Shown: one piece after another, positions 13,133-25,308 of the stretch | How positions within the stretch are numbered: position 1 is the stretch's first letter | Layout of the letters: each line of letters starts with the position of its first letter | Program-made: the position numbers and the translations under genes | Notes under the pieces: model-generated | What the model was told of the DNA's origin: nothing | The model's database searches: none | The model's input: only the letters and a program-made list of their open reading frames with translations | Assembly (NCBI GenBank): GCA_965213925.1 | Contig: OZ243927.1 | Span: forward strand, 2,976,001-3,040,000 | Source: Trueperaceae bacterium | Lineage (GTDB): Bacteria; Deinococcota; Deinococci; Deinococcales; Trueperaceae | Length of the DNA: 64,000 bases | Direction of reading: 5' to 3'

Positions 13133-14026
13133 CTAACGCAGCAACCCCGACACCAGATTCTGCGCGGCGAAGTCTCGATCTAAGATGCCCGGTAAGCCGA
13201 GCGAAAAGCCGCCGACGAGCGCAAAGTCTAAACCTCTTCCCGCTTGTAACGTCGCCAGTTGCGAGGCGAGCGCAACCGGATTGATGTCCACCTGCAAACT
13301 CAGCGGCGCGTCTCCCCCAGCGGGCAACGCTTGCGTCACCGCTCGCCCGACGCCGACCCTTGCACCGCCTAGCCTCATATCCAGTTCGGGCGCGCGGAAG
13401 ACGTAGCCTAAAGGTGTGGGGTTGGACAGCTCGAGCCCTACCTCAACCGTCGCCCTGGTAAGCCCGACATCGCGCAGCCCCGACCTCTCGGAAACGAAAC
13501 GAATCTCGGGCGCAGCCAAGCGAATTGGCTGGGTGAGCGTGCCCGAGACGAGCGTCGCGCTCGGCAACGTTTGGCGCGTGCCCAAGACCTCTACAGCCAC
13601 CGTCCCGTCAACCCTGTAGCGCGTCGGCTCCCCGATGATGAGCCCCGCTAAGTCCGCGAGCAGGCTGACACCTCTTTCAAGCGGCACGTCTACCTCTAAA
13701 GGCAACCGAGTTGACCCGTTCGCCGCCAGCGTGAATCCTTCGGTAAATTGACTACTAACTGACCTCTTCCCATTGACAAAGAGGTCAAAGTCCAGCCCCG
13801 CCAACGAGAGCCTGAACGAATTCGGATTCTGCACCTCTAGGTTAAAGAGGAACGTCGCGCTCGGCGAGCCGACACCCGGCGGATTGAGGCGCACCAGCCC
13901 CGAGTCTTGAGTGAGGAGCTTAAACTTAGGCGCTTTGACGAGGTTGCTCGCGCCAGGAACGCAGGCGTTGAGGGGGAGCGCAAGCAGAAGAAGCGCGGTA
14001 ATCTGAACTATCGAGAGTCGTTTCAT
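13133..14026 (-). CDS. Lipoprotein with two LEA_2/WHy domains
   Basis: Lipobox LNAC; two NP(N/T) motifs (VQNPNSF, LSNPTPL) in repeated beta domains. Confidence 0.8.
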   Translation of the reverse strand: MKRLSIVQITALLLLALPLNACVPGASNLVKAPKFKLLTQDSGLVRLNPPGVGSPSATFLFNLEVQNPNSFRLSLAGLDFDLFVNGKRSVSSQFTEGFTLAANGSTRLPLEVDVPLERGVSLLADLAGLIIGEPTRYRVDGTVAVEVLGTRQTLPSATLVSGTLTQPIRLAAPEIRFVSERSGLRDVGLTRATVEVGLELSNPTPLGYVFRAPELDMRLGGARVGVGRAVTQALPAGGDAPLSLQVDINPVALASQLATLQAGRGLDFALVGGFSLGLPGILDRDFAAQNLVSGLLR

Positions 14027-14460
14027 GCGCCTAGCTTATCCGAGGCGTTTTTCGCATGGGTTGAAAAACCTTACGTTGCAACCTTTTGAGGCCTCGGTTC
14101 GCTAAAGTTCGCTGAGGGGTTGAGGTAGTCGAGTTTGAAATTATTGGCTAAGGGCAATGATACCTTTTATTTAACAAGAGGTAAAATTATTTCAAGACAA
14201 TCTGAAGTTAGCTTGCATGTTTTGTAGTTTGCACATTTCATTAACGTCGCAAAGCCACTTTACCTTGACGCTCTTTCTCGAGACCTGGTATATTTGCACC
14301 TTACAGCGCGGGTGAGTTCTGTTACGCCTGCTACAGTTTAAGAGGTCTACACAGCTTTACAGCGAAATCGACGTGCGCGTATAATGTCGCATATTTACAA
14401 CCTTTCCTCTCAACGGCTGTAGACCTGCGCGGCTCTACAACCCATCCTTTTAGGAGGCAC

Positions 14461-15327
14461 ATGGCACGCACCGTTAAAGGCGGTTTGATCCAAGCGTCGA
14501 ACCCCATTCCAGGAGACAAAGACCTTCAGAAGATCAAGCAGGCGATGATGGACAAGCACATCCCGCTGATCGAACAAGCGGGCAAACAGGGCGTCGAGGT
14601 CTTGTGCTTGCAAGAGATTTTCTACGGACCTTACTTCTGCCCCTCCCAAGACAGTCGCTGGTACACCACCGCCGAGCCGATTCCCGACGGCGAGACCACC
14701 CAGATGATGATGGAACTCGCCAAGCAGTACGGCATGGTCATCGTCGTACCGATTTACGAAGAGGAGATGACGGGCGTCTACTACAACACCGCCGCTGTGA
14801 TTGACGCGGACGGTAAGTATTTAGGCAAGTACCGCAAGACGCACATCCCGCAGGTCGCGGGCTTTTACGAGAAGTTCTTCTTCCGCCCCGGCAACCTGGG
14901 CTATCCCGTCTTCGATACGGCAGTCGGTAAAGTCGGCGTCTACATCTGCTATGACCGGCACTTTCCCGAAGGGGCACGGGCGTTGGGGCTCAACGGCGCG
15001 GAGATCGTCTTCAATCCGAGTGCCACCGTTGCAGGGCTAAGCGAGTATTTGTGGCGGCTCGAGCAACCCGCCCACGCCGTCGCCAACGGCTACTTCGTCG
15101 GCGCTATCAACCGCGTCGGACACGAGGAACCCTGGGACATCGGCGAGTTCTACGGTCAGAGCTACTTCGTCAACCCGAGAGGTCAGTTCGTCGCCGAGGG
15201 CAGCCGCGACCAGGACGAACTCATCGTCGCGGATTTGGATATGTCGATGGTGCGCGAGGTGCGGGATTTGTGGCAGTTTTATAGGGACAGACGCCCGGAG
15301 ACGTATGACGAATTGGTGGAGTTGTAG
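14461..15327 (+). CDS. Nitrilase-family beta-ureidopropionase (N-carbamoyl-beta-alanine amidohydrolase)
   Basis: E-K-C triad (LQEIF, YRKTHIP, ICYDRHFPE); first gene of the pyrimidine catabolism operon. Confidence 0.88.
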   Translation: MARTVKGGLIQASNPIPGDKDLQKIKQAMMDKHIPLIEQAGKQGVEVLCLQEIFYGPYFCPSQDSRWYTTAEPIPDGETTQMMMELAKQYGMVIVVPIYEEEMTGVYYNTAAVIDADGKYLGKYRKTHIPQVAGFYEKFFFRPGNLGYPVFDTAVGKVGVYICYDRHFPEGARALGLNGAEIVFNPSATVAGLSEYLWRLEQPAHAVANGYFVGAINRVGHEEPWDIGEFYGQSYFVNPRGQFVAEGSRDQDELIVADLDMSMVREVRDLWQFYRDRRPETYDELVEL

Positions 15328-15394
15328 GAGTGGCTAGTGAGTAGTGAAGAGTGACTAGATGCTGCTCTCCACTATTCACCCATCACTCTCCTAC
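15324..15394. repeat. Heptamer array with inverted arm
   Basis: TGGCTAG TGAGTAG TGAAGAG TGACTAG followed by the complementary CTATTCA CCCATCA CTCTCCT. Confidence 0.65.
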
Positions 15395-15401
15395 TTCTAC
15401 T

Positions 15402-16769
15402 ATGGACGGGACCCCTTTAGACCTCACCGACCTCGAGACTAGATTTACAGAGCTTAAACCGCCTATGTCGAAAAATGAGGCTCGAGTCGAAGCCAACCGC
15501 TGCTTGTACTGCTTCGACGCGCCCTGCATCACCGCCTGCCCGACCTCGATTGACGTGCCTACCTTCATCCGCAAAATCTCCACGGATAATGTTTTGGGCG
15601 CGGCGACAACCATCTTAGAAGCCAACCTCATGGGCGCGAGCTGTAGCCGCGTGTGTCCGGTTGAAGAACTCTGCGAGGGCGCGTGCGTGCTGACAAGCGA
15701 GCATAAACCCATCGAAATTGGTCGCTTGCAGCGCTACGCGATGGACTACGTATACGAGAAAGGTACGGTTCCTTTCAAGCCTGCGGAGAAAAACGGCAAG
15801 AGGGTTGCGATTATAGGCGCGGGACCTGCCGGGCTGACCTGTGCGGGCGAACTCGCTAAGCTCGGTTATGACGCTACCGTCTTCGAAAAGAACGATTTGC
15901 CAGGTGGACTCTCTACCTACGGCATCGTCGTGATGCGCGAGCCAATTCGCGTAGCGCTGCAAGAGGTTGAATTTGTCAAGAAGCTGGGCGTTGAGGTTAA
16001 GACGGGTGTCGCCATTGGGCAAGACATCACCGCCAATGACCTCTTGAACGACTACGACGCAGTGTTCATCGGTGCGGGGATGGGCAAGGTTCCGAACCTG
16101 GACATCCCTGGTGAGAATTTAGAAGGCGTTACCGAAGCCCTTTCTTTTATCGCAGAGACCAAACTCGCGGAGAAAGAAGGTTTAGAGCAGCTTAAAAATC
16201 TCCCTATCGGTCAACAGGTTGCCGTCATCGGCGCAGGCAATACGGCAATTGACGCGGCGACGATTGCGAAGAGGTTGGGCGCAGAGCGCGTCACCATCAT
16301 CTATCGCCGCAGCGAGTTAGAGATGCCCGCGTATACCTTTGAATACGACTTCATCAAAAATGAGGGCGTCGAGTTTAGGTTTTTGAATCAGCCGCTCGAG
16401 ATTCAAGGCGAAAACGGCGCGGTGACAGGCTTAAAGTGCGTCCGCATGGAGTTAGGCGAACCGGGCGAGGACGGACGCCGCCGACCCGTACAGGTTGAAG
16501 GCAGCGAGTGGGTTTTACCCTGCGACCACATCATCAAAGCGATCGGACAAGAAAAGCTCACCCCTCTTCACGAGGCGTTTGGGCTCGAGACCCAAAGCGG
16601 CTACATCAAAGTAGATGAAGCGCTCCGCACCTCTAACCCCAACGTTTTCGCGGGCGGCGACTGTATTCGTTTAGAAGGCGACGCGATGACGGTCACGGCA
16701 ACCGAGGATGGCAAAATCGCAGCGAGAAGTATCCATCAATGGCTCAGCGAGAGCCTTTCGGCAGATTAG
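15402..16769 (+). CDS. preT: Dihydropyrimidine dehydrogenase subunit PreT (GltD-like)
   Basis: RCLYCFDAPC..ACP, GAGPAG, GAGNTAID; adjacent to preA. Confidence 0.9.
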   Translation: MDGTPLDLTDLETRFTELKPPMSKNEARVEANRCLYCFDAPCITACPTSIDVPTFIRKISTDNVLGAATTILEANLMGASCSRVCPVEELCEGACVLTSEHKPIEIGRLQRYAMDYVYEKGTVPFKPAEKNGKRVAIIGAGPAGLTCAGELAKLGYDATVFEKNDLPGGLSTYGIVVMREPIRVALQEVEFVKKLGVEVKTGVAIGQDITANDLLNDYDAVFIGAGMGKVPNLDIPGENLEGVTEALSFIAETKLAEKEGLEQLKNLPIGQQVAVIGAGNTAIDAATIAKRLGAERVTIIYRRSELEMPAYTFEYDFIKNEGVEFRFLNQPLEIQGENGAVTGLKCVRMELGEPGEDGRRRPVQVEGSEWVLPCDHIIKAIGQEKLTPLHEAFGLETQSGYIKVDEALRTSNPNVFAGGDCIRLEGDAMTVTATEDGKIAARSIHQWLSESLSAD

Positions 16770-16780
16770 GAGGTGAGGAA

Positions 16781-16843
16781 GCTAGTCAGCTAGTCAGCCA
16801 GTCAGCACTTCAGGGTTTTCCTGATTAGCTGACTGGCTGAAGT
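16781..16843. repeat. Octamer array with inverted arm
   Basis: CTAGTCAG CTAGTCAG CCAGTCAG CACTTCAG, then CTGATTAG CTGACTGG CTGAAGT. Confidence 0.8.
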
Positions 16844-16884
16844 CCAGTCAAGCTGGATGAACGATGCTGAGTTGCTTATCCTTT

Positions 16885-18240
16885 ATGGCTGACCTTTCCA
16901 TCAACTTCGCAGGCATCAAGTCCCCCAACCCCTTCTGGCTCGCCTCCGCCCCGCCGACGAACACCGCCTATCAGGTCAACAAGGCGTTCGAGTACGGCTG
17001 GGGTGGCGCGGTCTGGAAGACCATCGGGGAGCCCGTTTTGAACGTCTCGTCGCGCTACGGCGGCTTCGAGTACAGCGGCAATAAGCTCGTGGCGATCAAC
17101 AACGTCGAACTGATTTCGGATAGACCTCTTGAAACGAATTTGCGAGAGATCAAAGAGGTCAAAGAACTCTGGAGTGACCGCGCCGTCATCGCCTCCGCGA
17201 TGGTGGCGTCCGAGCCGAAAGCGTGGCACGACATCATTCAGAAGATCGAGGACACGGGCGCGGACGGCATCGAACTCAACTACGGCTGCCCGCACGGGAT
17301 GAGCGAGCGCGGCATGGGCGCGGCGGTGGGGCAAGTGCCCGAATACTGCTCGATGATTACCGAGTGGGTGACGGACGTGGCGAGCATCCCCGTGATTGTC
17401 AAACTCACGCCGAACGTGACCGACATCGGCAAGCCTGCGCAGGCTGCTGTGAAGGGCAAAGCGGACGCCCTCTCACTAATTAACACCATCAATTCTATCG
17501 TCGGGGTGGATTTGGACAGTTTTCAACTCGAGCCCAATATCGGCGGCAAAGGCTCCCACGGCGGCTATGCGGGTCCGGCGGTGAAACCCGTCGCCTTGCA
17601 CCTCTTGTCCGTCGTCGCGAATGATGAAGAGGTGCAGCGGGCGAACTTGCCCATCTCCGGGATGGGTGGCATCCAGACCTGGCGCGACGCCGCTGAATTT
17701 CTACTTTTAGGTGCGACGAGTTTGCAAGTTTGCACGGCGGTCATGCACTACGGCTTTCGCATCATCGAAGATTTGACGGACGGACTTTCGAACTGGTTAG
17801 ACGAGAAAGGCGCGGCGTCGGTGAATGAAATTATCGGGGCGTCGGTGCCGAGAGTAAGCAGCTTCGGTGACTTCGATCTCAGCTACAAAGTCGTTGCCCG
17901 CATCAACCCCAAGACTTGTATCAACTGCAACCTCTGTTACGTCGCCTGCGATGAGGGAGCGCATCAGTGTATTGACCTCACGGTAGACGGCGCGAAAATC
18001 GACCCCGCGACCTATACAGGAAGTGTTAAGCCGCAGCCCGTCGTGCGCGAACAAGATTGCGTCGGCTGTAACCTCTGCTCATTGGTGTGTCCAGTGGACG
18101 AATGCATCTCGATGGTGGAAATGCCGCCGGAGCATGAAAGTGTTACCTGGAACGAGTTGAGCACGAATAAGCCGGAGGTGACGCGGGACTGGGAGGCGAT
18201 GGAGCGGTATCGGAAAGAGGTTGGGATAGACATACATTAG
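16885..18240 (+). CDS. preA: Dihydropyrimidine dehydrogenase subunit PreA
   Basis: NPFWLASAPP, ELNYGCPHGM, KLTPN; two C-terminal 4Fe-4S motifs. Confidence 0.95.
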   Translation: MADLSINFAGIKSPNPFWLASAPPTNTAYQVNKAFEYGWGGAVWKTIGEPVLNVSSRYGGFEYSGNKLVAINNVELISDRPLETNLREIKEVKELWSDRAVIASAMVASEPKAWHDIIQKIEDTGADGIELNYGCPHGMSERGMGAAVGQVPEYCSMITEWVTDVASIPVIVKLTPNVTDIGKPAQAAVKGKADALSLINTINSIVGVDLDSFQLEPNIGGKGSHGGYAGPAVKPVALHLLSVVANDEEVQRANLPISGMGGIQTWRDAAEFLLLGATSLQVCTAVMHYGFRIIEDLTDGLSNWLDEKGAASVNEIIGASVPRVSSFGDFDLSYKVVARINPKTCINCNLCYVACDEGAHQCIDLTVDGAKIDPATYTGSVKPQPVVREQDCVGCNLCSLVCPVDECISMVEMPPEHESVTWNELSTNKPEVTRDWEAMERYRKEVGIDIH

Positions 18241-18296
18241 GACTGGGAGAAAAGGACTGGGAGAAAAGGACTGAGTGAAGAGGACTGAGAGGTTGA
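18239..18296 (+). repeat. Heptamer array, left arm of the four-helix-bundle cassette
   Basis: GACTGGG AGAAAAG GACTGGG AGAAAAG GACTGAG TGAAGAG GACTGAG. Confidence 0.9.
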
Positions 18297-18300
18297 AGGC

Positions 18301-18681
18301 GTGAGTGAGAAGGTTAGTCGTTTTGAAGAGCTTGTGGCTTGGCAGAAGGCTCGAGCTTTGACTAAGTCGGTTTATCAAGTCACTAAGCGCGGTGACTTCG
18401 CTAAGGATTTTGGTCTGACAAATCAGATACAGCGAGCAGCGGTCTCAGTTATGTCGAATATTGCTGAAGGATTTGAGCGTGGGCGCCGCGCCGAATTTCA
18501 TCAGTTTTTATCTGTCGCTAAATCCTCTTGCGGAGAGGTAAGATCACAACTCTACGTCGCTCTGGATGTTGGCTACCTCCAAAAATCGACCTTTGACAAC
18601 CTTATGTCTCAAGCGGAAGAGGTATCACGAATCGTGGGCGGGTTCAGAGCCGCAGTACAAAAGCAGCGAGAGAAAAGTTAA
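18301..18681 (+). CDS. Four-helix-bundle protein (23S rRNA IVP / TIGR02436-like)
   Basis: FEEL.AWQKA, DFGL..QI.RAAVSV.SNIAEG.ER, F..FL..AK.S..E..SQL. Confidence 0.92.
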
Positions 18682-18752
18682 AAGGACTGAGGACTGAGAG
18701 AAAAGAGATTTTACTCAGTCCTCAGCACTCAGTCCTTTTCTCTTCTCAACCT
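18681..18752. repeat. Heptamer hairpin, right side of the four-helix-bundle cassette
   Basis: GACTGAG GACTGAG AGAAAAG..CTCAGTC CTCAGCA CTCAGTC CTTTTCT. Confidence 0.9.
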
Positions 18753-18778
18753 ACTCTTTCCCCACATAGGAGGGCATT

Positions 18779-20152
18779 TTGAGTTTGCTTATCCGCAACG
18801 CCGACATCATCACCGCCGACTCGCGTATGACCGCTGACATCTACTGCGAAGGCGAAACCATTACCCGCATTGGGCAAAACTTAGATGTTTCCGCCGATGA
18901 GGTCATCGACGCCTCGGGCAAATACGTCTTCCCCGGCTTCATCGACCCGCACGTCCACATCTACCTCCCTTTCATGAGCACCTACGCCAAAGACTCCCAC
19001 GCGACGGGCAGCCGCGCCGCGCTCATGGGCGGCACGACGACCTTCATCGAGATGTGTGCGCCGAACAAGGGCGAAGACCTCTTAGAAGGTTACGAGTTGT
19101 GGAAGGGCAAAGCGGAGGGCGAGAGCGCGTGCGATTACACCTTTCACATGGGCGTCTCTAAGTTCGACGATAAGAGCGAAAAACAACTTCGTGAAATTGT
19201 CGCGGACGGTATCTCATCGTTCAAGGTCTTTTTAGCGTACAAGGGCTTTTTCGGCGTGAACGACGAAGAGCTTTTCAAGGCACTGACGCTCGCTAAAGAA
19301 CTCGGCGTCATCGTCACCGCGCACTGCGAGAACCCCGAACTCGTGGCGCAGCTTCAAACGAAGCTCTTAGAGGAGGGCAAAACCGGACCCGGCTACCACG
19401 AGCCGAGCCGTCCCGAATGGGTGGAGGCGGACGGGACGCATCACTTCGCGACCTTTTTGGAGGCGACGGGCGCGAAGGGGTACGTCGTTCACCTCTCGTG
19501 TGCACCTGCCCTAAAAGCGGCGCTAGACGCGAAAGCGAGAGGGGTAGACCTCTCTATCGAGGCGGTGATTCCGCACCTCTTGTTGGATAAAACGCTCGCT
19601 GAGCAGGACGGGTTAGAGGGTGCGAAGTACGTGATGTCGCCGCCCTTGCGGAAGAAGTCGAATCAGAAAGTTCTGTGGGACGCGCTGGCGCAAGGGTTTA
19701 TCGACACCGTCGGCACGGACCACTGCCCCTTTGACACGGAGCAAAAAGAGATGGGGCTGGACGACTTTACGAAGATTCCGAATGGGATTCCGGCTTTAGA
19801 AGACCGCGTCAAACTCCTCTACACCTACGGCGTGAGTCGCGGCGGTTTGGATGTGCACCGCTTCGTGGAGGCAGCCTCGACCAAAGCCGCTAAGTTATTC
19901 GGGCTCTTTCCGCGCAAAGGGACGATTGCGGTAGGGAGCGACGCCGACTTGGTGATTTATGACCCGAACGCAGAAGATACGATTTCGGCGCAAAGTCAAA
20001 CGATGAACGTCAACTATAGTGGGTTTGAAGGGACAGAAGTAGACGGGCGCGTTAAGACAGTGACGGTAAGAGGTAAGGTACAAGTTAAAGAGGGTGAGTT
20101 CGTCGGTGAGCAGGGGTGGGGAACGCTACTAAAACGTGAGGCGGGCGCTTAG
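18779..20152 (+). CDS. hydA: Dihydropyrimidinase
   Basis: PGFIDPHVH, SFKVFLAY, HCEN, SPPLR, TDHCPF. Confidence 0.95.
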   Translation: MSLLIRNADIITADSRMTADIYCEGETITRIGQNLDVSADEVIDASGKYVFPGFIDPHVHIYLPFMSTYAKDSHATGSRAALMGGTTTFIEMCAPNKGEDLLEGYELWKGKAEGESACDYTFHMGVSKFDDKSEKQLREIVADGISSFKVFLAYKGFFGVNDEELFKALTLAKELGVIVTAHCENPELVAQLQTKLLEEGKTGPGYHEPSRPEWVEADGTHHFATFLEATGAKGYVVHLSCAPALKAALDAKARGVDLSIEAVIPHLLLDKTLAEQDGLEGAKYVMSPPLRKKSNQKVLWDALAQGFIDTVGTDHCPFDTEQKEMGLDDFTKIPNGIPALEDRVKLLYTYGVSRGGLDVHRFVEAASTKAAKLFGLFPRKGTIAVGSDADLVIYDPNAEDTISAQSQTMNVNYSGFEGTEVDGRVKTVTVRGKVQVKEGEFVGEQGWGTLLKREAGA

Positions 20153-20823
20153 GTGTTGGCTTTCGCTTCTAGCTCCCCTACAAACCTCTCGTGCGCTTCG
20201 CTTTTTAGAGCATTTTGCAGCGTCATCATGACTTGCATGTCATCCTCGAGCAGCGCCCTTGTATCAAGCACAAGCCCCGGAAAGGTGCGGCTTTCCAAAA
20301 TTCCGTCTTTGGGCTCGAGCCTCACATACCTCTCTTCATCCAACGCAAACCAGTCGAACGCGCTATCCTCCACCCGCCACACTAGATATTCTTTCACCCC
20401 GTTACGGCGGTACGCGCGGAGTTTGTCGTGCAAATCGTAGGAGGCGGTGTTTGAAGCGATTTCGACCACTAACTCGGGCGGACCTTCGATGTAGTCATCC
20501 GCGCTCACAGAAGAGGTTCCGCCGACTTTGGGCTCGAGCCTTAGAAGCGCGTCGGGCTGAGGTTCATTGTCCATATCCAAGCGAACGGTTGCATTATCCG
20601 AGATGGACGAAAACGGTGTGGCTATCTCATAGGCTCCTAACCACATGACGATGCGAGTATGAGGATGACCATGTCTTTGATGACGAACAGGAGACGGCAC
20701 GTAAACAACCCCTTCGATGAGTTCGGCTTTTTTAAGGCGCGGCGTAGCGTGATAGCGCCGCTCGAACTCCGCACGGGTGAGTCTGTCGCCGTTCGCCAGT
20801 ATGGGAATATCTGCTACGACCAT
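20149..20823 (-). CDS. Uma2 family (PD-(D/E)xK) endonuclease
   Basis: AELIEGVV, QPDA, PELVVEIA, K..AY...GVKEY; start placed 6 nt after TAAAAT. Confidence 0.9.
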   Translation of the reverse strand: MVVADIPILANGDRLTRAEFERRYHATPRLKKAELIEGVVYVPSPVRHQRHGHPHTRIVMWLGAYEIATPFSSISDNATVRLDMDNEPQPDALLRLEPKVGGTSSVSADDYIEGPPELVVEIASNTASYDLHDKLRAYRRNGVKEYLVWRVEDSAFDWFALDEERYVRLEPKDGILESRTFPGLVLDTRALLEDDMQVMMTLQNALKSEAHERFVGELEAKANT

Positions 20824-20863
20824 GTACATATTTTACGACATTTCGAATCTATGAGGTATCCGC

Positions 20864-21658
20864 TTGATTGCTACTGAACCCAAGAAAGACGTTCAAACCG
20901 TCATCAGTATCCGCGACCTCAACATGGTTTATACGGGGCGCGGTACGGAAACCGTCGCGCTCAAAAAGGCCAACCTAGAAATTAGAGAGGGCGAATTCAT
21001 CTCGCTCATCGGTCCGTCGGGCTGCGGCAAAACAACCCTTCTGCGCCTTATCGCCGACCTCATCCAGCCGACCTCGGGCGAAATTACGGTGACGGGCAAG
21101 ACGCCCCAGGAAGCGAGAGAACGCCGCGAATACGGTTACGTCTTCCAGGCTCCGGTGCTATACGATTGGCGGACCGTGCTCAAAAACGTGACGCTACCCT
21201 TAGAGATTATGAATTTCTCTAAAGCAGAGCGTAAGGAGCGGGCGGCAGAGTTACTCGAGATGGTCGGCTTGCGAGACTTCCACCATCAATATCCCTGGCA
21301 GCTTTCGGGTGGAATGCAGCAGCGCGTTTCGATTGCAAGGGCGCTCGCCTTTGACCCCAAACTCCTCTTGATGGACGAACCTTTCGGCGCACTGGACGAA
21401 ATCACCAGAGAGCAGATGAATCACGAACTCTTGACGATCTGGCAGGAAACGAAAAAGACCGTCGTCTTCGTCACCCACTCCATCGCCGAAGCCGTCTTCC
21501 TCTCCTCACGCATCATCGTGATGACGCCGCGCCCCGGCAAAATCGAGCAGGTGATCCCGGTGGACTTGCCTTATCCGAGAGATAACGATACAAGAGAATC
21601 GAAGGAATTTTTCGACTTAGCAACCGAAGTGCGTGAGTCTTTGAGAGGGGTTCACTGA
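20864..21658 (+). CDS. ABC ATP-binding protein (TauB/SsuB-type), probable pyrimidine importer
   Basis: GPSGCGKT, LSGGMQQR, DEPFGALD. Confidence 0.93.
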   Translation: MIATEPKKDVQTVISIRDLNMVYTGRGTETVALKKANLEIREGEFISLIGPSGCGKTTLLRLIADLIQPTSGEITVTGKTPQEARERREYGYVFQAPVLYDWRTVLKNVTLPLEIMNFSKAERKERAAELLEMVGLRDFHHQYPWQLSGGMQQRVSIARALAFDPKLLLMDEPFGALDEITREQMNHELLTIWQETKKTVVFVTHSIAEAVFLSSRIIVMTPRPGKIEQVIPVDLPYPRDNDTRESKEFFDLATEVRESLRGVH

Positions 21659-23049
21659 TGAGGACTGAGGAAAAAGGACTGAGGACTGAGAGAAAAGAGA
21701 AAAACTCAGCACTCAGTCCTCAGTCCTTTTCTCTTCTCAAGTTTTTACCCTCATTCAAAAGCTATCTCCCGGTGTTCGCAGTGCTGACCCTGCTCATCCT
21801 CTTAGGCTATCCCCTCGCCCTCGTGTTCGGGCTACCTCTCGCCTACCGCGACATGCAAGACATCAGGAAGTGGGAAAAAGAGATCGTCACCGAGCGTCAA
21901 CCGCTTCAGGGAGAGGTCAATGGTGAAAATCGCACCTTCACCTTCCCTGCAAACAACCTTGTGGAAAACGACAGCGGGCGGACGCTTTTAGTGAACGACA
22001 CGCCGCTCACCTATGACGCCGAACGACCTGAAGAACGGGTAGATGGAGAAACGCGAACCTTTACCTTTGAGAGTCAGTCGGGACTGGTGACGTTGGATAG
22101 GCGGTTTTTGGAAGAGGGGGAGAACTTCTCCAGAAATGCCAACATCCTCACCTTTTCACGCCCACCGCCGCGCAACGCGCAGCTCAGGCAGTATCCAGAT
22201 TACGCGGTGACGAATCCAGCACAGGGAGAGGTCACGCTGGCGGAGGCTCCACCTGTAGGCTCGAGCCTCGCCACCGACCAATACACCTTTTACGCGAGAC
22301 CGAGCTGCGGGGCGAACGTGCTCGAGTGCTTTTTCGCCTTGCCACAGCACCCCGTCCCCTTTCCCCACTGGATTGCGGCGGGCGTCGCGCCCTTCTTTAG
22401 CAAGTATCCCTTTACGGACGAGCGCAACGTGGTGAGAGCGACGCTTTATACGGCGCTTGGAACGTCGGCGGCGTTGGCGTTGGGGGGAGCGGTGGGGATT
22501 ATCTTGGCGGTGCTCTTTGTACTTTTGAGACCGCTCGAGCGTGCCCTCTTGCCCTGGGTCATCGCCTCGCAGACCGTCCCCATCATCGCGCTCGTGCCCG
22601 TGCTGCTCCTCGTGTTGGGTAACTTCGGCATCACCATTCAGACGAGTATTTTGCCCACTGCGATTATCGGCGCGTACATCGCGTTCTTTCCTGTTGTCGT
22701 CGGCACTGTAAAAGGTCTGCGCTCGGTGGACCCGCTCGCCCTAGACCTCATGCGCTCGTACGCTGCCTCACCGCGTCAAGTTTTTACGAAGGTACGTTTT
22801 CCAGCTGCCGTACCCTTCTTCTTTACCTCTCTCAAACTGGGAACCGCCGCCGCCTTGGTCGGCGCACTCGTCGCGGAAACCGAATCGAACAATCGGCGCG
22901 GGCTGGGCTTTCAGATTTTGGGTCAAGTGCAGTCGGGTAACGTCGCGGATGTGTGGATTTTGCTGCTCATCTCGGCGCTTCTGGGCGTCGGCTTAGTGGC
23001 ACTCGTTGGCTTGATGCAGCGTTTGATTGCACCTTGGGAGCGGACGTGA
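21658..23049 (+). CDS. ABC permease with repeat-derived N-terminus and inserted beta-rich extracytoplasmic domain
   Basis: C-terminal TauC/SsuC-like permease (QTVPIIAL, FFPVV, GL.SVD); TGATG coupling to the ATPase gene. Confidence 0.85.
   Translation: MRTEEKGLRTERKEKNSALSPQSFSLLKFLPSFKSYLPVFAVLTLLILLGYPLALVFGLPLAYRDMQDIRKWEKEIVTERQPLQGEVNGENRTFTFPANNLVENDSGRTLLVNDTPLTYDAERPEERVDGETRTFTFESQSGLVTLDRRFLEEGENFSRNANILTFSRPPPRNAQLRQYPDYAVTNPAQGEVTLAEAPPVGSSLATDQYTFYARPSCGANVLECFFALPQHPVPFPHWIAAGVAPFFSKYPFTDERNVVRATLYTALGTSAALALGGAVGIILAVLFVLLRPLERALLPWVIASQTVPIIALVPVLLLVLGNFGITIQTSILPTAIIGAYIAFFPVVVGTVKGLRSVDPLALDLMRSYAASPRQVFTKVRFPAAVPFFFTSLKLGTAAALVGALVAETESNNRRGLGFQILGQVQSGNVADVWILLLISALLGVGLVALVGLMQRLIAPWERT
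21659..21740. repeat. Gene-less copy of the heptamer hairpin, in frame within the permease
   Basis: GACTGAG GAAAAAG GACTGAG GACTGAG AGAAAAG AGAAAAA CTCAGCA CTCAGTC CTCAGTC CTTTTCT CTTCTCA; near-identical to 18681-18749. Confidence 0.9.
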
Positions 23050-24155
23050 CCTCTTCCGTAAAGCCGATTTGGACGGCGCTCGCCGCGTCTCTCATTGCAC
23101 CGGTTGGGCTCTTCGGACCTCTTAGCAGTGGCGTGGGTGCATTCAGCGTCACGCTACTCGTTCTCGGACTTCTCTCGCTCATCGGCGCAACAGTCGGACG
23201 CTTCTGGTTTGCAGTTGCGCTCGTTCCTGTCGGGCTTCTTGGTGCATTTGCAACGGTTCTGTCGCTGATGAACACAAATGGTGAAGGAGCATGGGGTTTC
23301 TGGTCACTCCTTTGGGGCTTTCTCTTCATCTCTATATTCGCGGTTGGACGAGTGAGTACAGACGAGACGACCTCTTCCCTCGAGACCCGCTTAAAGATAC
23401 TTTTACCCTCCGCCTCCGTCCCCTTCCTATTCCTCCTCATCTGGCAAGGTCTCGTTGTCGGCTACGGCGTGCCGAAAGGGATTTTCCCGAGTGTCGTGGA
23501 CGTGTGGCGCTCGCTCACAGCTTCGTTCAGCGTGCTCCTTTCAGACGCTTACGTCACCTTCATCAAAGAGGTCTTGCTCGGCTTCGCGGTTGGGCTGACG
23601 ATGGGCTTTTTGGCGGGCGTCGGCATCGCCTTTAGCACCTTTTTGCGGCGCGGCTTTTTACCTCTCGCTGCCGCCTTCGGTGCGGTACCCATCGTCGGAC
23701 TTGCGCCTGTGTTGGGGCGAGCCTTTGGCGTGGATTGGGAATCGAAAGCGGCGGTTGTGGTCATCGTGACCTTCTTTCCGGTGGTGCTCAACACGGTGCA
23801 GGGGCTCGTGTCGGTGGACGCGCTCAAACTCGAGCTGCTCCGCGCCTACGCCGCCACCCCCCGAGAAGTGTTTTTCAAACTCCGCTTGCCGAATGCTCTC
23901 CCCTACCTCTTCAACGCCCTCAAACTCGCCGCCGTTTTAGCCGTCATCAGCGTCATCGTCGCGGAGTTCTTGATTCCAGGTCCGCCCGAAGGATTGGGGC
24001 AGCGGATTTCTCTCTCAGCACGGCGCGGGGCATATGACGTGGTGTTTGCGGCGATTTTTGTCTCGAGCGTCATCTCTATCGCCATCTACGGGGCGCTCGC
24101 CTGGTTGGAGCGGCGCTTGACTGGGTGGCATTCGTCGTTTAGGGAAGGAAGGTAG
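23046..24155 (+). CDS. ABC permease (TauC/SsuC-type)
   Basis: GTGA overlap with the previous stop; FFPVVLNT..GL, KLRLPNALP. Confidence 0.9.
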   Translation: MTSSVKPIWTALAASLIAPVGLFGPLSSGVGAFSVTLLVLGLLSLIGATVGRFWFAVALVPVGLLGAFATVLSLMNTNGEGAWGFWSLLWGFLFISIFAVGRVSTDETTSSLETRLKILLPSASVPFLFLLIWQGLVVGYGVPKGIFPSVVDVWRSLTASFSVLLSDAYVTFIKEVLLGFAVGLTMGFLAGVGIAFSTFLRRGFLPLAAAFGAVPIVGLAPVLGRAFGVDWESKAAVVVIVTFFPVVLNTVQGLVSVDALKLELLRAYAATPREVFFKLRLPNALPYLFNALKLAAVLAVISVIVAEFLIPGPPEGLGQRISLSARRGAYDVVFAAIFVSSVISIAIYGALAWLERRLTGWHSSFREGR

Positions 24156-24197
24156 AAGTCAGGATGAAGAGTTGAGAAGTCAGCAGTCAGAAGTCAG
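24154..24197 (+). repeat. Heptamer array
   Basis: AGAAGTC AGGATGA AGAGTTG AGAAGTC AGCAGTC AGAAGTC, starting at the permease stop codon. Confidence 0.8.
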
Positions 24198-24258
24198 TGG
24201 AAAGCGCCAAACCTCTTTCGCCCATCTCTCGTTCGCGTCATCTCATAGGAGGAAAACC

Positions 24259-25308
24259 ATGAAAAAAAACTTACTCACTCTCGCCGCGCTTCTCTTTTCT
24301 ATCACGTTCGCCCAAGACCTCATCCCCGTGACCTTTCAGTCGAAGTGGTTTCCGCAGGCGCAGTTTGCGGGGTACTTCGTGGCGATTGACCAGGGGTTTT
24401 ATGAGGAAGAAGGCTTAGAGGTCACGGTCTTGGACGGCGGCAACGTCAACCCGACGGTGCAGGTCGCCTCGGGTAACGCTGACTTCGGGACGGACTGGAT
24501 TGCCAATATGTTGGTGCAGCGCGAGCAGGGGCTCGAGGTGGTGCAAATCGCGCAGATTTACCAGGACTCGGGCTACCGGATGGTGTCGCTGCAAGACTCG
24601 GGCATCGAGACTTTTGCTGACTTAGCCGGGCGGCGCGTGGGCGTGTGGGGCTTCGGCAACGAGTTCGTCGCGCAGGCTGTGTTCGACGTGGAGGGCTTAA
24701 CTTCCGACCTCGACCCGACGACGAGCAACCCCGATGTGAACGCGGTCGTGTACGCCTTTGACCCCGCGCTCGTCTTTCCGAATGAGGTGGACGTCGCCTC
24801 GGTCATGACCTATAACGAACTCGATCAGATTGTCGGACTTGGGTACGAATTGGACAACCTGAACATCTTAGACCCCTCAGAAATCGACGCGGAACTCCTA
24901 GAAGACCTCATCTTTACGACGCCGGAGTTATTGGAGAGCGAAGACTTCAAAGGCTCGGGCGTCTCCGGGCAAGAGGTCGCGGAGCGCTTTTTGCGGGCGA
25001 CGATTCGCGGCTGGGAGGTCGCGGTGGAGAACCCGGCGGAAGCCGTCGAAATCGTGCTCGGCTATTGCGGCGATACCTGTGCGGGGTCGGGGAGCACCTC
25101 GAGCCCCGAAATCCACCAGTCCTGGCAGATGGACCGCGTCGCCGAACTCGTCAGACCGAGTGAGGATACGGAAATCGGTGCGCTCAGCGAAGAGGCGTTC
25201 AATAAGTCGGTTGAGTTGCTCGTGCAAGTCGGGCTGATTAACGAGGCGCTCTCTTATGGAGAGATCGTGAACTCGAGCGTCTACGAAGCGGTGAGCGGCG
25301 CGGAATAG
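24259..25308 (+). CDS. ABC substrate-binding protein, NMT1/THI5-like
   Basis: AGGAGG RBS; signal peptide; KWFPQAQFAGYFVA...GFY.EEGL. Confidence 0.9.
   Translation: MKKNLLTLAALLFSITFAQDLIPVTFQSKWFPQAQFAGYFVAIDQGFYEEEGLEVTVLDGGNVNPTVQVASGNADFGTDWIANMLVQREQGLEVVQIAQIYQDSGYRMVSLQDSGIETFADLAGRRVGVWGFGNEFVAQAVFDVEGLTSDLDPTTSNPDVNAVVYAFDPALVFPNEVDVASVMTYNELDQIVGLGYELDNLNILDPSEIDAELLEDLIFTTPELLESEDFKGSGVSGQEVAERFLRATIRGWEVAVENPAEAVEIVLGYCGDTCAGSGSTSSPEIHQSWQMDRVAELVRPSEDTEIGALSEEAFNKSVELLVQVGLINEALSYGEIVNSSVYEAVSGAE

Follow-up and report, generated by a model that had tools for sequence, protein, structure and literature searches.

The closest published relative of the element described here is the intervening sequence (IVS) in helix 45 of the Coxiella burnetii 23S rRNA, for which the accessible part of its description gives a 28-bp stem cut by RNase III and an S23p open reading frame (ORF) (PMC4990558). 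The same text places GACAGAT heptamers, variable among strains, upstream of the ORF, cites the 23S rRNA IVS of Leptospira as a further ORF-bearing case, and reports an S23p-family protein as a pentamer. We compare this system with a cassette at 18239-18752 of a 64-kb window (the whole stretch of DNA analyzed, 64,000 nt, G000:C1:2976001-3040000) from a Trueperaceae genome (G000), in which a gene for a 126-aa four-helix-bundle protein stands between heptamer arrays in the spacer of a preA-like and a hydA-like gene. The protein belongs to the already known PF05635 family, and the locus is an IVS-type cassette in an mRNA operon. We consider it rather probable that it is a horizontally acquired passenger of the rRNA-IVS type, in which the PF05635 gene and its own complementary heptamer arms were inserted as a unit.

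As far as the Coxiella IVS is described in the text available, the two elements share a PF05635-family ORF inside terminal inverted repeats of ∼28 nt, upstream tandem heptamers whose copy number varies between close relatives, and the lack of a promoter of their own, so that each would ride on a host transcript; the IVS is regarded there as a selfish or mobile element. Unlike the IVS, the cassette lies between two protein-coding genes rather than in a 23S rRNA helix, and it has an extra local 3′ hairpin. The short tandemly repeated repetitive (STRR) heptamer sequences of filamentous cyanobacteria were reportedly described by Mazel in 1990 and Vioque in 1997. The accessible text of a later account presents STRR repeats as intergenic, hairpin-forming arrays of 7-bp units with function unknown (PMC2670836).

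The PF05635 gene and its arms

The preA stop codon TAG (18238-18240) abuts the cassette, and the first heptamer array begins inside it, at 18239. This purine-rich 5′ arm (18239-18300, plus strand) was marked by Tandem Repeats Finder (TRF) and by direct-repeat families D1 to D4 and extends to the start-codon region of the gene. Its units read GGACTGG, GAGAAAA, GGACTGG, GAGAAAA, GGACTGA, GTGAAGA, GGACTGA, and GAGG..., and TRF scored 18239-18291 as an array of period 14 with 3.8 copies (score 78; consensus AGGACTGAGAGAAA). The gene follows at 18301-18681 (plus strand, GTG start), and its final codons overlap a second array of sense words, A2 (18669-18703, plus strand; GAGAAAAG, TTAAAAG, GACTGAG, GACTGAG, AGAAAAG), which supplies the 5′ strand of a local hairpin (fold, -36.6 kcal/mol; z, -3.8). 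The pyrimidine-rich 3′ arm (18709-18747, plus strand) carries the words in antisense (ACTCAGT, CCTCAGC, ACTCAGT, CCTTTTC, TCTTCTC); right-side TRF arrays of period 7 lie at 18683-18698 (AGGACTG) and 18714-18736 (CTCAGTC). Sequence shared with congeners resumes at the hydA ribosome-binding site AGGAGG (18768-18773) and TTG start codon (18779-18781), both on the plus strand.

The arms hold a 29-nt inverted repeat, 18261-18289 against 18714-18742 (both given on the plus strand), complementary at 27/29 positions (93%); the left copy is paired in both the minimum-free-energy (MFE) and the centroid fold. The proximal part of the 3′ arm pairs locally with A2 and the distal part with the far 5′ arm, the competing local partner of the right arm being 18669-18703 or 18672-18698. 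An earlier, sequence-only reading of the window had pointed to the heptamer-flanked gene between preA and hydA, the start of the cassette at the preA stop codon, the inverted repeat, and a local alternative for the right arm, and all of these were reproduced. So was the lower GC content that it had noted: 18239-18752 has 47.9% GC, versus 57.7% for preA, 56.8% for hydA, and 55-58% for the neighbors overall. At third codon positions, the cassette ORF has 44.9% GC, versus 75.2% for preA, 71.4% for hydA, and 64-75% for the neighbors overall. The cassette gene is compositionally foreign.

The family assignment in that reading also stood. The protein matched PF05635 (E 1.9e-37; 128.1 bits, cut-off 33.8), spanning positions 1-104 of 106, and TIGR02436 (E 2.9e-34; 117.6 bits, cut-off 24). 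The family is very large: one capped search gave >7,900 homologues at E ≤ 1e-5. To our knowledge, structures have been solved for PF05635/TIGR02436 proteins but no function is known outside diversity-generating retroelements (DGRs), and we know of no enzymatic domain in a four-helix bundle of 126 aa. The cassette protein is basic (pI 9.7), and its structural relatives 2gsc (E 4.6e-15) and 2rld were both deposited with five chains; by homology to them, it is probably pentameric. Its orthologue in the congener G001 is 87% identical, with a dN/dS of 0.054, so the gene is under purifying selection. The dS between the two copies was 1.25, against 0.42-0.76 for five flanking genes, an imprecise value from 119 codons. 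This intact ORF differs from that of the Coxiella IVS, which is reported as decaying and not translated in the accessible part of its description (PMC4990558).

A role as the Avd protein of a DGR was considered on the strength of the family. The available text of a review equates the folds of PF05635 proteins and the homologous bAvd, itself a basic, pentameric, nucleic-acid-binding four-helix bundle (PMC10053308), and the bAvd-like profile PF22296 gave close homologues of the cassette protein only sub-threshold scores (25 bits for P0017, for example, against a cut-off of 40). Unlike a bAvd locus, the cassette has no reverse transcriptase nearby and no template/variable repeat pair. The nearest RVT_1 match is ∼323 kb away, and the RVT_1 matches in the genome are only four identical ORFs of 618-637 aa (G000:C1:291528, 2670406, 3430718, and 3475506), probably copies of one group II intron. 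These distant matches rule out a DGR Avd at this locus, a reading to which we give almost no weight.

Arm words across the family and sites in congeners

That the arms go with the gene is shown by their word class, here with a TGAG core, which follows the protein subfamily across many phyla and with fixed polarity. Two subfamilies were compared. Subfamily 1, gathered with the cassette protein as the query, comprised 80 loci in at least 10 phyla with proteins 57-75% identical (73 with enough flank); subfamily 3, gathered with the third PF05635 protein of G000 (paralogue 3), comprised 80 metagenome loci (66 usable). A metagenome-assembled genome (MAG) of the Trueperaceae was among the loci related to the cassette protein. 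Arm words of subfamily 1 (AGGACTG, AGTGCTG, AGTGATG, AGTACTG, and similar) consist of the TGAG core plus three variable bases, and those of subfamily 3 (GAAGGGT, GAAGAGT, GAAGTGT, or GAATTGT) have a GAAG core. The pattern TGAGnnnTGAG stood upstream of the gene at 54/73 loci of subfamily 1 versus 2/66 of subfamily 3, and GAAKnnnGAAK at 2/73 versus 64/66. The complementary word lay downstream at 53/73 and 63/66 loci, respectively, and the antisense word upstream at only 1/73 and 4/66. Self-complementarity scores reached 28, the 99th percentile of cross-subfamily pairings (median, 16), at 66/73 loci of subfamily 1 and 55/66 of subfamily 3. Within the subfamilies, median self scores of 48 and 39 exceeded non-self medians of 22 and 28, from which it follows that the two arms of one cassette share variant words.

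The particular words also recur over large distances. GGACTGA is found in the arms of close homologues from Acidobacteriota, Chloroflexota, Nitrospirota, and Proteobacteria, and Nostoc homologues of the cassette gene have GAGTGCT and GAGTAAT arms. The modal arm length in the two subfamilies was four in-phase units (∼28 nt). We tried the idea that one pentamer subunit reads one heptamer; it predicts five units and finds no support in a mode of four. Closer to home, self-complementarity ranked first of 29 at 11 of the 15 PF05635 loci in 31 related genomes, although three of these 11 score low (23-24). The four others were a frameshifted copy (rank 2), L035 (rank 4), an internal-stop copy, and a pseudogene. 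When the cassette studied here was paired with non-self flanks of the 15 related loci, the mean score was 16 and the maximum was 20.

Comparison of the same junction in relatives gave both filled and empty sites. Among the 31 related genomes, hydA was found in 22, and preA lies beside it at 17 loci (G000 included). Only G000 and G001 have a PF05635 gene at this junction, so the gene is not stably syntenic: 15/17 junctions lack it, 11 of the 17 have spacers of 31-73 nt, and four hold unrelated inserts of 215-591 nt. In the congener G002, whose hydA is 93% identical, the spacer is empty, its 68 nt holding a GC-rich hairpin but no heptamers. The single PF05635 gene of G002 lies ∼18 kb away in a 484-nt cassette with GCAATGA/TCATTGC arms, and the G000 counterpart of that site (C1:2975566-2975656, just before the window) holds a gene-less hairpin of GAAGnnn heptamers. 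The earlier suggestion of a mobile cassette is supported to the extent that gene and arms behave as an insertable unit, present or absent among congeners at two sites.

The G000 and G002 proteins are 64.7% identical, whereas among the matches listed, named proteins from cyanobacteria and Armatimonadota (Chthonomonas) are 73-79% identical to the G000 protein, closer than the G002 copy. A quick tree with SH-aLRT support, poorly resolved and with many open forks, set the G000/G001 and G002 copies apart and joined the latter to another Trueperaceae MAG (SH-aLRT, 83); separate lineages for the two sets of copies rest mainly on the identities. Judged from these comparisons of sequence, the cassette is a gain in the preA-hydA spacer within one Trueperaceae genus. 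The arms of the G000 and G001 copies have only their outermost units in common (TAG-GACTGrGAGAAAAGG ... CCTTTTCTCT), and within each copy the two arms are complementary (27/29 and 29/32). One genus thus offers a clean natural experiment: one site exists in filled and empty states, a second is occupied in one species by a different copy but in another by a gene-less hairpin, and both arms have been rewritten in orthologues that are still 87% identical.

Arrays without a gene and the predicted stem

The three PF05635 genes of G000 each lie between co-directional protein-coding genes, none of them in 23S rRNA. Paralogue 1 is the cassette gene; paralogue 2 (L002, G000:C1:1223909-1224300) lies between an FtsX-type permease and an ABC ATPase, and paralogue 3 lies between an ORF without assigned family and a DNA methylase. 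Paralogue 2 is apparently frameshifted near its 3′ end, with the conserved C-terminal helix (…LSEQLFEVGRLLGAYMKAIQKQRT) in another frame, and PADLOC returned no match for paralogues 1 and 3. Their arm words are GGACTGA/GAGAAAA, GGAGCGA/GAAGCAA, and GAAGGGT/GAAGTGT, respectively. The left-arm unit GGACTGG is presumably the STRR1 repeating unit (CCCCAGT) on the other strand. The survey of paralogue flanks suggested with the sequence-only reading placed TRF arrays of period 7n on 6/6 flanks, compared with 163/3121 spacers (5.2%) genome-wide.

Arrays were taken as TRF loci; a strict lag-7 identity scan yielded only 26, because adjacent units differ. Of the period-7 TRF arrays in G000, 166/299 are noncoding, and of those with period 8, 42/213. 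The noncoding arrays merge into 166 loci; by word, ∼39 loci are GGACTGA, ∼46 are GCAATGA, and 12 are GrAGnnn, the rest including CAGTAGT/CAGAATT and GCTAAnn. The word GGACTGAG occurs 13 times in the window (2.3 expected; 0/100 shuffles reached 13), and the genome has 57 clusters with at least two copies; 52/132 clusters have the word on both strands and are hairpins. A ∼22-nt element (GTTACGAAGTTTTCGCAGAGCG-like) is nested in several GGACTGAG hairpins, for example, near 383327, 908715, 1329802, 4373731, and 4501444 of G000:C1. Like STRR repeats, the arms and gene-less arrays of G000 are many-copy, noncoding tandem 7-bp units with hairpins (z, -3.8 to -5.2); unlike the gene-less cyanobacterial STRRs, they occur in a Deinococcota genome and at three loci bracket a PF05635 gene. 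They also resemble repetitive extragenic palindromic (REP/REPIN) sequences and miniature inverted-repeat transposable elements (MITEs) in being short palindromic intergenic repeats, present in tens of copies and variable between close relatives. They differ from both in that the arms are variable numbers of heptamer units rather than one conserved sequence. At the cassette, no target-site duplication was seen.

With arrays so abundant, the arms might be a coincidence, STRR-like hairpins filling spacers independently of PF05635 and an ordinary accessory gene happening to lie beside two of them. The 166 noncoding loci and ∼57 GGACTGAG clusters speak for this, as do arrays in neighboring spacers of the same operon (16780-16850, 21660-21740, and 24150-24200), spacer hairpins swapped between congeners where no PF05635 gene is involved, and the bracketing of ordinary genes. 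Bracketing was measured by a flank inverted-repeat score, the local alignment of the upstream flank with the reverse-complemented downstream flank; it replaced RNAduplex energies of 120-nt flanks, whose long, loose duplexes gave no discrimination. The cassette gene scores 48, a value reached by 8 of 4421 ORF-based crude genes of G000 (63 reach 26). Four top scorers that were inspected proved to be an IS1 InsA fragment, an IS240-type transposase, an SBP_bac_5 gene, and a major facilitator superfamily (MFS) gene, so bracketing is rare but not unique to the PF05635 gene. We nevertheless consider coincidence improbable: it is disfavored by the paralogue flanks and by the subfamily words, since the same packaging, with those words and in fixed polarity, recurs in other phyla and in metagenomes and GGACTGA arms accompany close homologues in four other phyla. 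Among the bracketed genes, the SBP_bac_5 gene (G000:C1:107727-109295) and the MFS gene (4309227-4310435) lie in inverted repeats with scores of 96 and 68, and at L203 (G000:C1:4513600-4514500), a 92-aa InsA-like (IS1) ORF is enclosed by inverted arms of 222 nt with 88% complementarity.

We see the gene-less hairpins that share the cassette's words as relics or else as non-autonomous relatives. They would be the latter if the PF05635 protein made or spread hairpins in trans and the gene-less ones were its MITE-like derivatives, a pairing of autonomous and non-autonomous forms that we think unlikely, though somewhat less so than coincidence. In its favor, GGACTGA, the dominant gene-less word matching an arm word in G000, is that of paralogue 1, the site of the G002 cassette is a gene-less hairpin in G000, and no Y1 transposase (PF01797; the REP-associated tyrosine transposase, RAYT) that could move REP-like hairpins matched in G000 (96.9% complete; the control profile matched in 6/14 named genomes). 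Clear TGAG-type arrays occur in 5/11 genomes with a PF05635 hit and in 1/20 without, the genomes being kin rather than independent. In G026, with 33 matches of TGAG type and 1 to the control pattern, the sole PF05635 hit is a pseudogene with the upstream flank word GAGCTAT, and the matches listed belong to that word family (GAGCTAT, GAGCTTT, and GAGTCTT). Against it, hairpin loops of G000 contained no gene remnant, the CAGTAGT and GCTAAnn families, like GCAATGA, have no cognate gene there, and an enzymatic domain in so small a bundle would be new to us. A further contrary case is the genome G030, which, like G026, comes from the same order as G000 but from another family; it is taken up below.

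Several observations weigh against the passenger-cassette reading. Heptamer arrays do not go only with the gene: the 166 noncoding period-7n loci of G000 stand against only 3 PF05635 genes, and the ∼46 GCAATGA loci have no cognate PF05635 gene in that genome. G030 has 193 TGAGnnnTGAGnnnTGAG matches (0 in the control pattern; words GAGCTAT and GAGCTTT) and no PF05635 hit in an assembly that is 94% complete in 460 contigs. The right arm sits in a complete local hairpin, 29 nt of which are identical (by eye) to the gene-less GGACTGAG/GAGAAAA hairpin at 21660-21740 (no strand assigned). That hairpin (fold, -45.1 kcal/mol; z, -5.2) lies between an ABC ATPase stop and a permease gene and is missing there in both congeners, whose common spacer of 87-88 nt is a different sequence. 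Orthologous operon spacers of the three congeners carry hairpins of different words, so arrays turn over regardless of a gene: between preT and preA, G000 (16780-16850) has a hairpin of 8-base units (AGCTAGTC), G001 a GGTTAAA/GAGGAAA/GAGAAAA hairpin, and G002 a GCTGTTA/GCCATTA hairpin, the repeats having been wholly replaced between species with 94-99% identical flanking proteins. Between the 87%-identical orthologues of G000 and G001, most arm units differ. At the preA-hydA junction, neither a target-site duplication nor a clean empty-site sequence was visible; the whole spacer differs between filled and empty sites, the 68 nt of G002 being unrelated. The two remaining points concern the RNA fold and are given with it.

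The CN-hydrolase-preT spacer of G001 (equivalent to 15328-15410 of the window) has a 484-nt insert that starts with a AGCTAGTC hairpin and contains an ORF; the same spacers of G000 and G002 are 83-92 nt long, with heptamer arrays of other words. The ORF listed at 21658-23049 starts inside the array at 21660-21740, so the gene probably begins later than listed.

The sequence-only reading had proposed that the transcript loops the gene out. As an mRNA-level IVS, the arms would form an RNA stem, and RNase III would free a small mRNA and part the preA message from that of hydA. The fold predicted for 18225-18770 (-187.7 kcal/mol; z, -3.67) has the long-range stem in its MFE and centroid forms, with a 12-bp local hairpin and ∼19 bp of long-range stem (28 long-range pairs with longer flanks). 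The 93% complementarity of the arms, their modal length beside the 28-bp stem that the accessible Coxiella text describes as cut by RNase III, and the lack of promoter-like or terminator-like sites in the cassette all agree with such a loop. The controls give it no support. When the downstream flank was reversed, 23 of the 28 expected long-range pairs remained and only 9.6 kcal/mol was lost (-179.4 versus -189.0 kcal/mol), since almost any register lets a purine-rich arm pair with a pyrimidine-rich one. Arm mismatches had no G.U excess: in 118 loci with clear arms, 391 mismatches comprised 234 of transversion type and 157 of transition type, the latter 75 G.U-type and 82 A.C-type (p 0.63), a test whose power is limited if arms change unit by unit. 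The right arm, moreover, has its competing local partner, a hairpin of a gene-less family found genome-wide. Looping-out therefore finds no firm support, and we regard an mRNA-level IVS as doubtful. Arm complementarity looks like both arms using the same vocabulary rather than base-pair-level selection on the sense RNA. Without a wobble signature, and with abundant arrays but no gene in one relative, caution is needed in carrying the rRNA-IVS mechanism over to mRNA.

Expression, possible word recognition, and the PF05635 family

The cassette interrupts a co-directional run of four host genes at 14461-20152, identified from the ORF list and Pfam as encoding a CN-hydrolase, a preT-like oxidoreductase, and the preA-like and hydA-like proteins. 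The preA-like gene (16864-18240, plus strand) has DHO_dh and Fer4_21 (4Fe-4S dicluster) matches, and the downstream hydA-like gene (18779-20152, plus strand) encodes a dihydropyrimidinase-like amidohydrolase (Amidohydro_1); preA and hydA act in pyrimidine breakdown. A gene for a Uma2-family putative endonuclease (20149-20829, minus strand) overlaps the hydA stop by 4 nt and breaks the co-directional catabolic/transport cluster. A simple scan found no promoter-like or terminator-like site inside the cassette, and the best promoter-like sites lay at 14265-14385, so transcription probably enters the cassette from the promoter region of the operon, near 14.3 kb. An intrinsic terminator was considered and rejected for the 3′ hairpin: no terminator-like site was found at 18669-18747, and the only nearby match (18756-18774) overlaps the hydA ribosome-binding site. 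Genome-wide, heptamer arrays in G000 are not enriched in convergent spacers (3.6%, versus 5.9% of co-directional spacers), which also argues against terminators. Rfam searches at E ≤ 1 over 14000-24500 returned only sub-threshold miRNA-precursor models, on hairpins.

On the passenger-cassette reading, expression would come by read-through from the host operon promoter, as for a promoter-less cassette. The basic, presumably pentameric protein might then recognize its own arms by their heptamer words, in RNA or single-stranded DNA, and RNase III could cleave the ∼28-nt arm duplex. Putative word recognition, supported indirectly by the way word class tracks protein subfamily across phyla, is a possibility we take seriously while holding it somewhat below even; RNase III cutting, by analogy with the Coxiella stem, we consider less likely still. 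The arms change fast and unit by unit, yet the subfamily core is kept over 25-43% protein divergence, for which word recognition by a co-traveling protein would be the simplest account. The differing arm units of close orthologues argue against recognition base by base.

In mainly nonsubscription literature, taken without supplements, we found no papers on PF05635 genes outside rRNA as repeat-armed cassettes or on a link between such genes and STRRs. A far broader idea, which we regard as speculative and improbable, is that PF05635 proteins are sequence-specific readers of heptamer arrays. Together with their arms, they would be the autonomous members of a very large class of mobile elements, of which the STRR-type hairpins of cyanobacteria, Deinococcota, and other phyla, along with both ORF-less and ORF-bearing rRNA IVSs, would be non-autonomous or decayed forms. 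If true, a single mechanism would cover three old puzzles: S23p/IVP function and the origins of both rRNA IVSs and STRR repeats. That the words differ by subfamily makes the heptamer array a likely ligand of the protein, which invites a direct binding experiment, and it links PF05635 proteins with heptamer repeats that have gone unexplained in several phyla.

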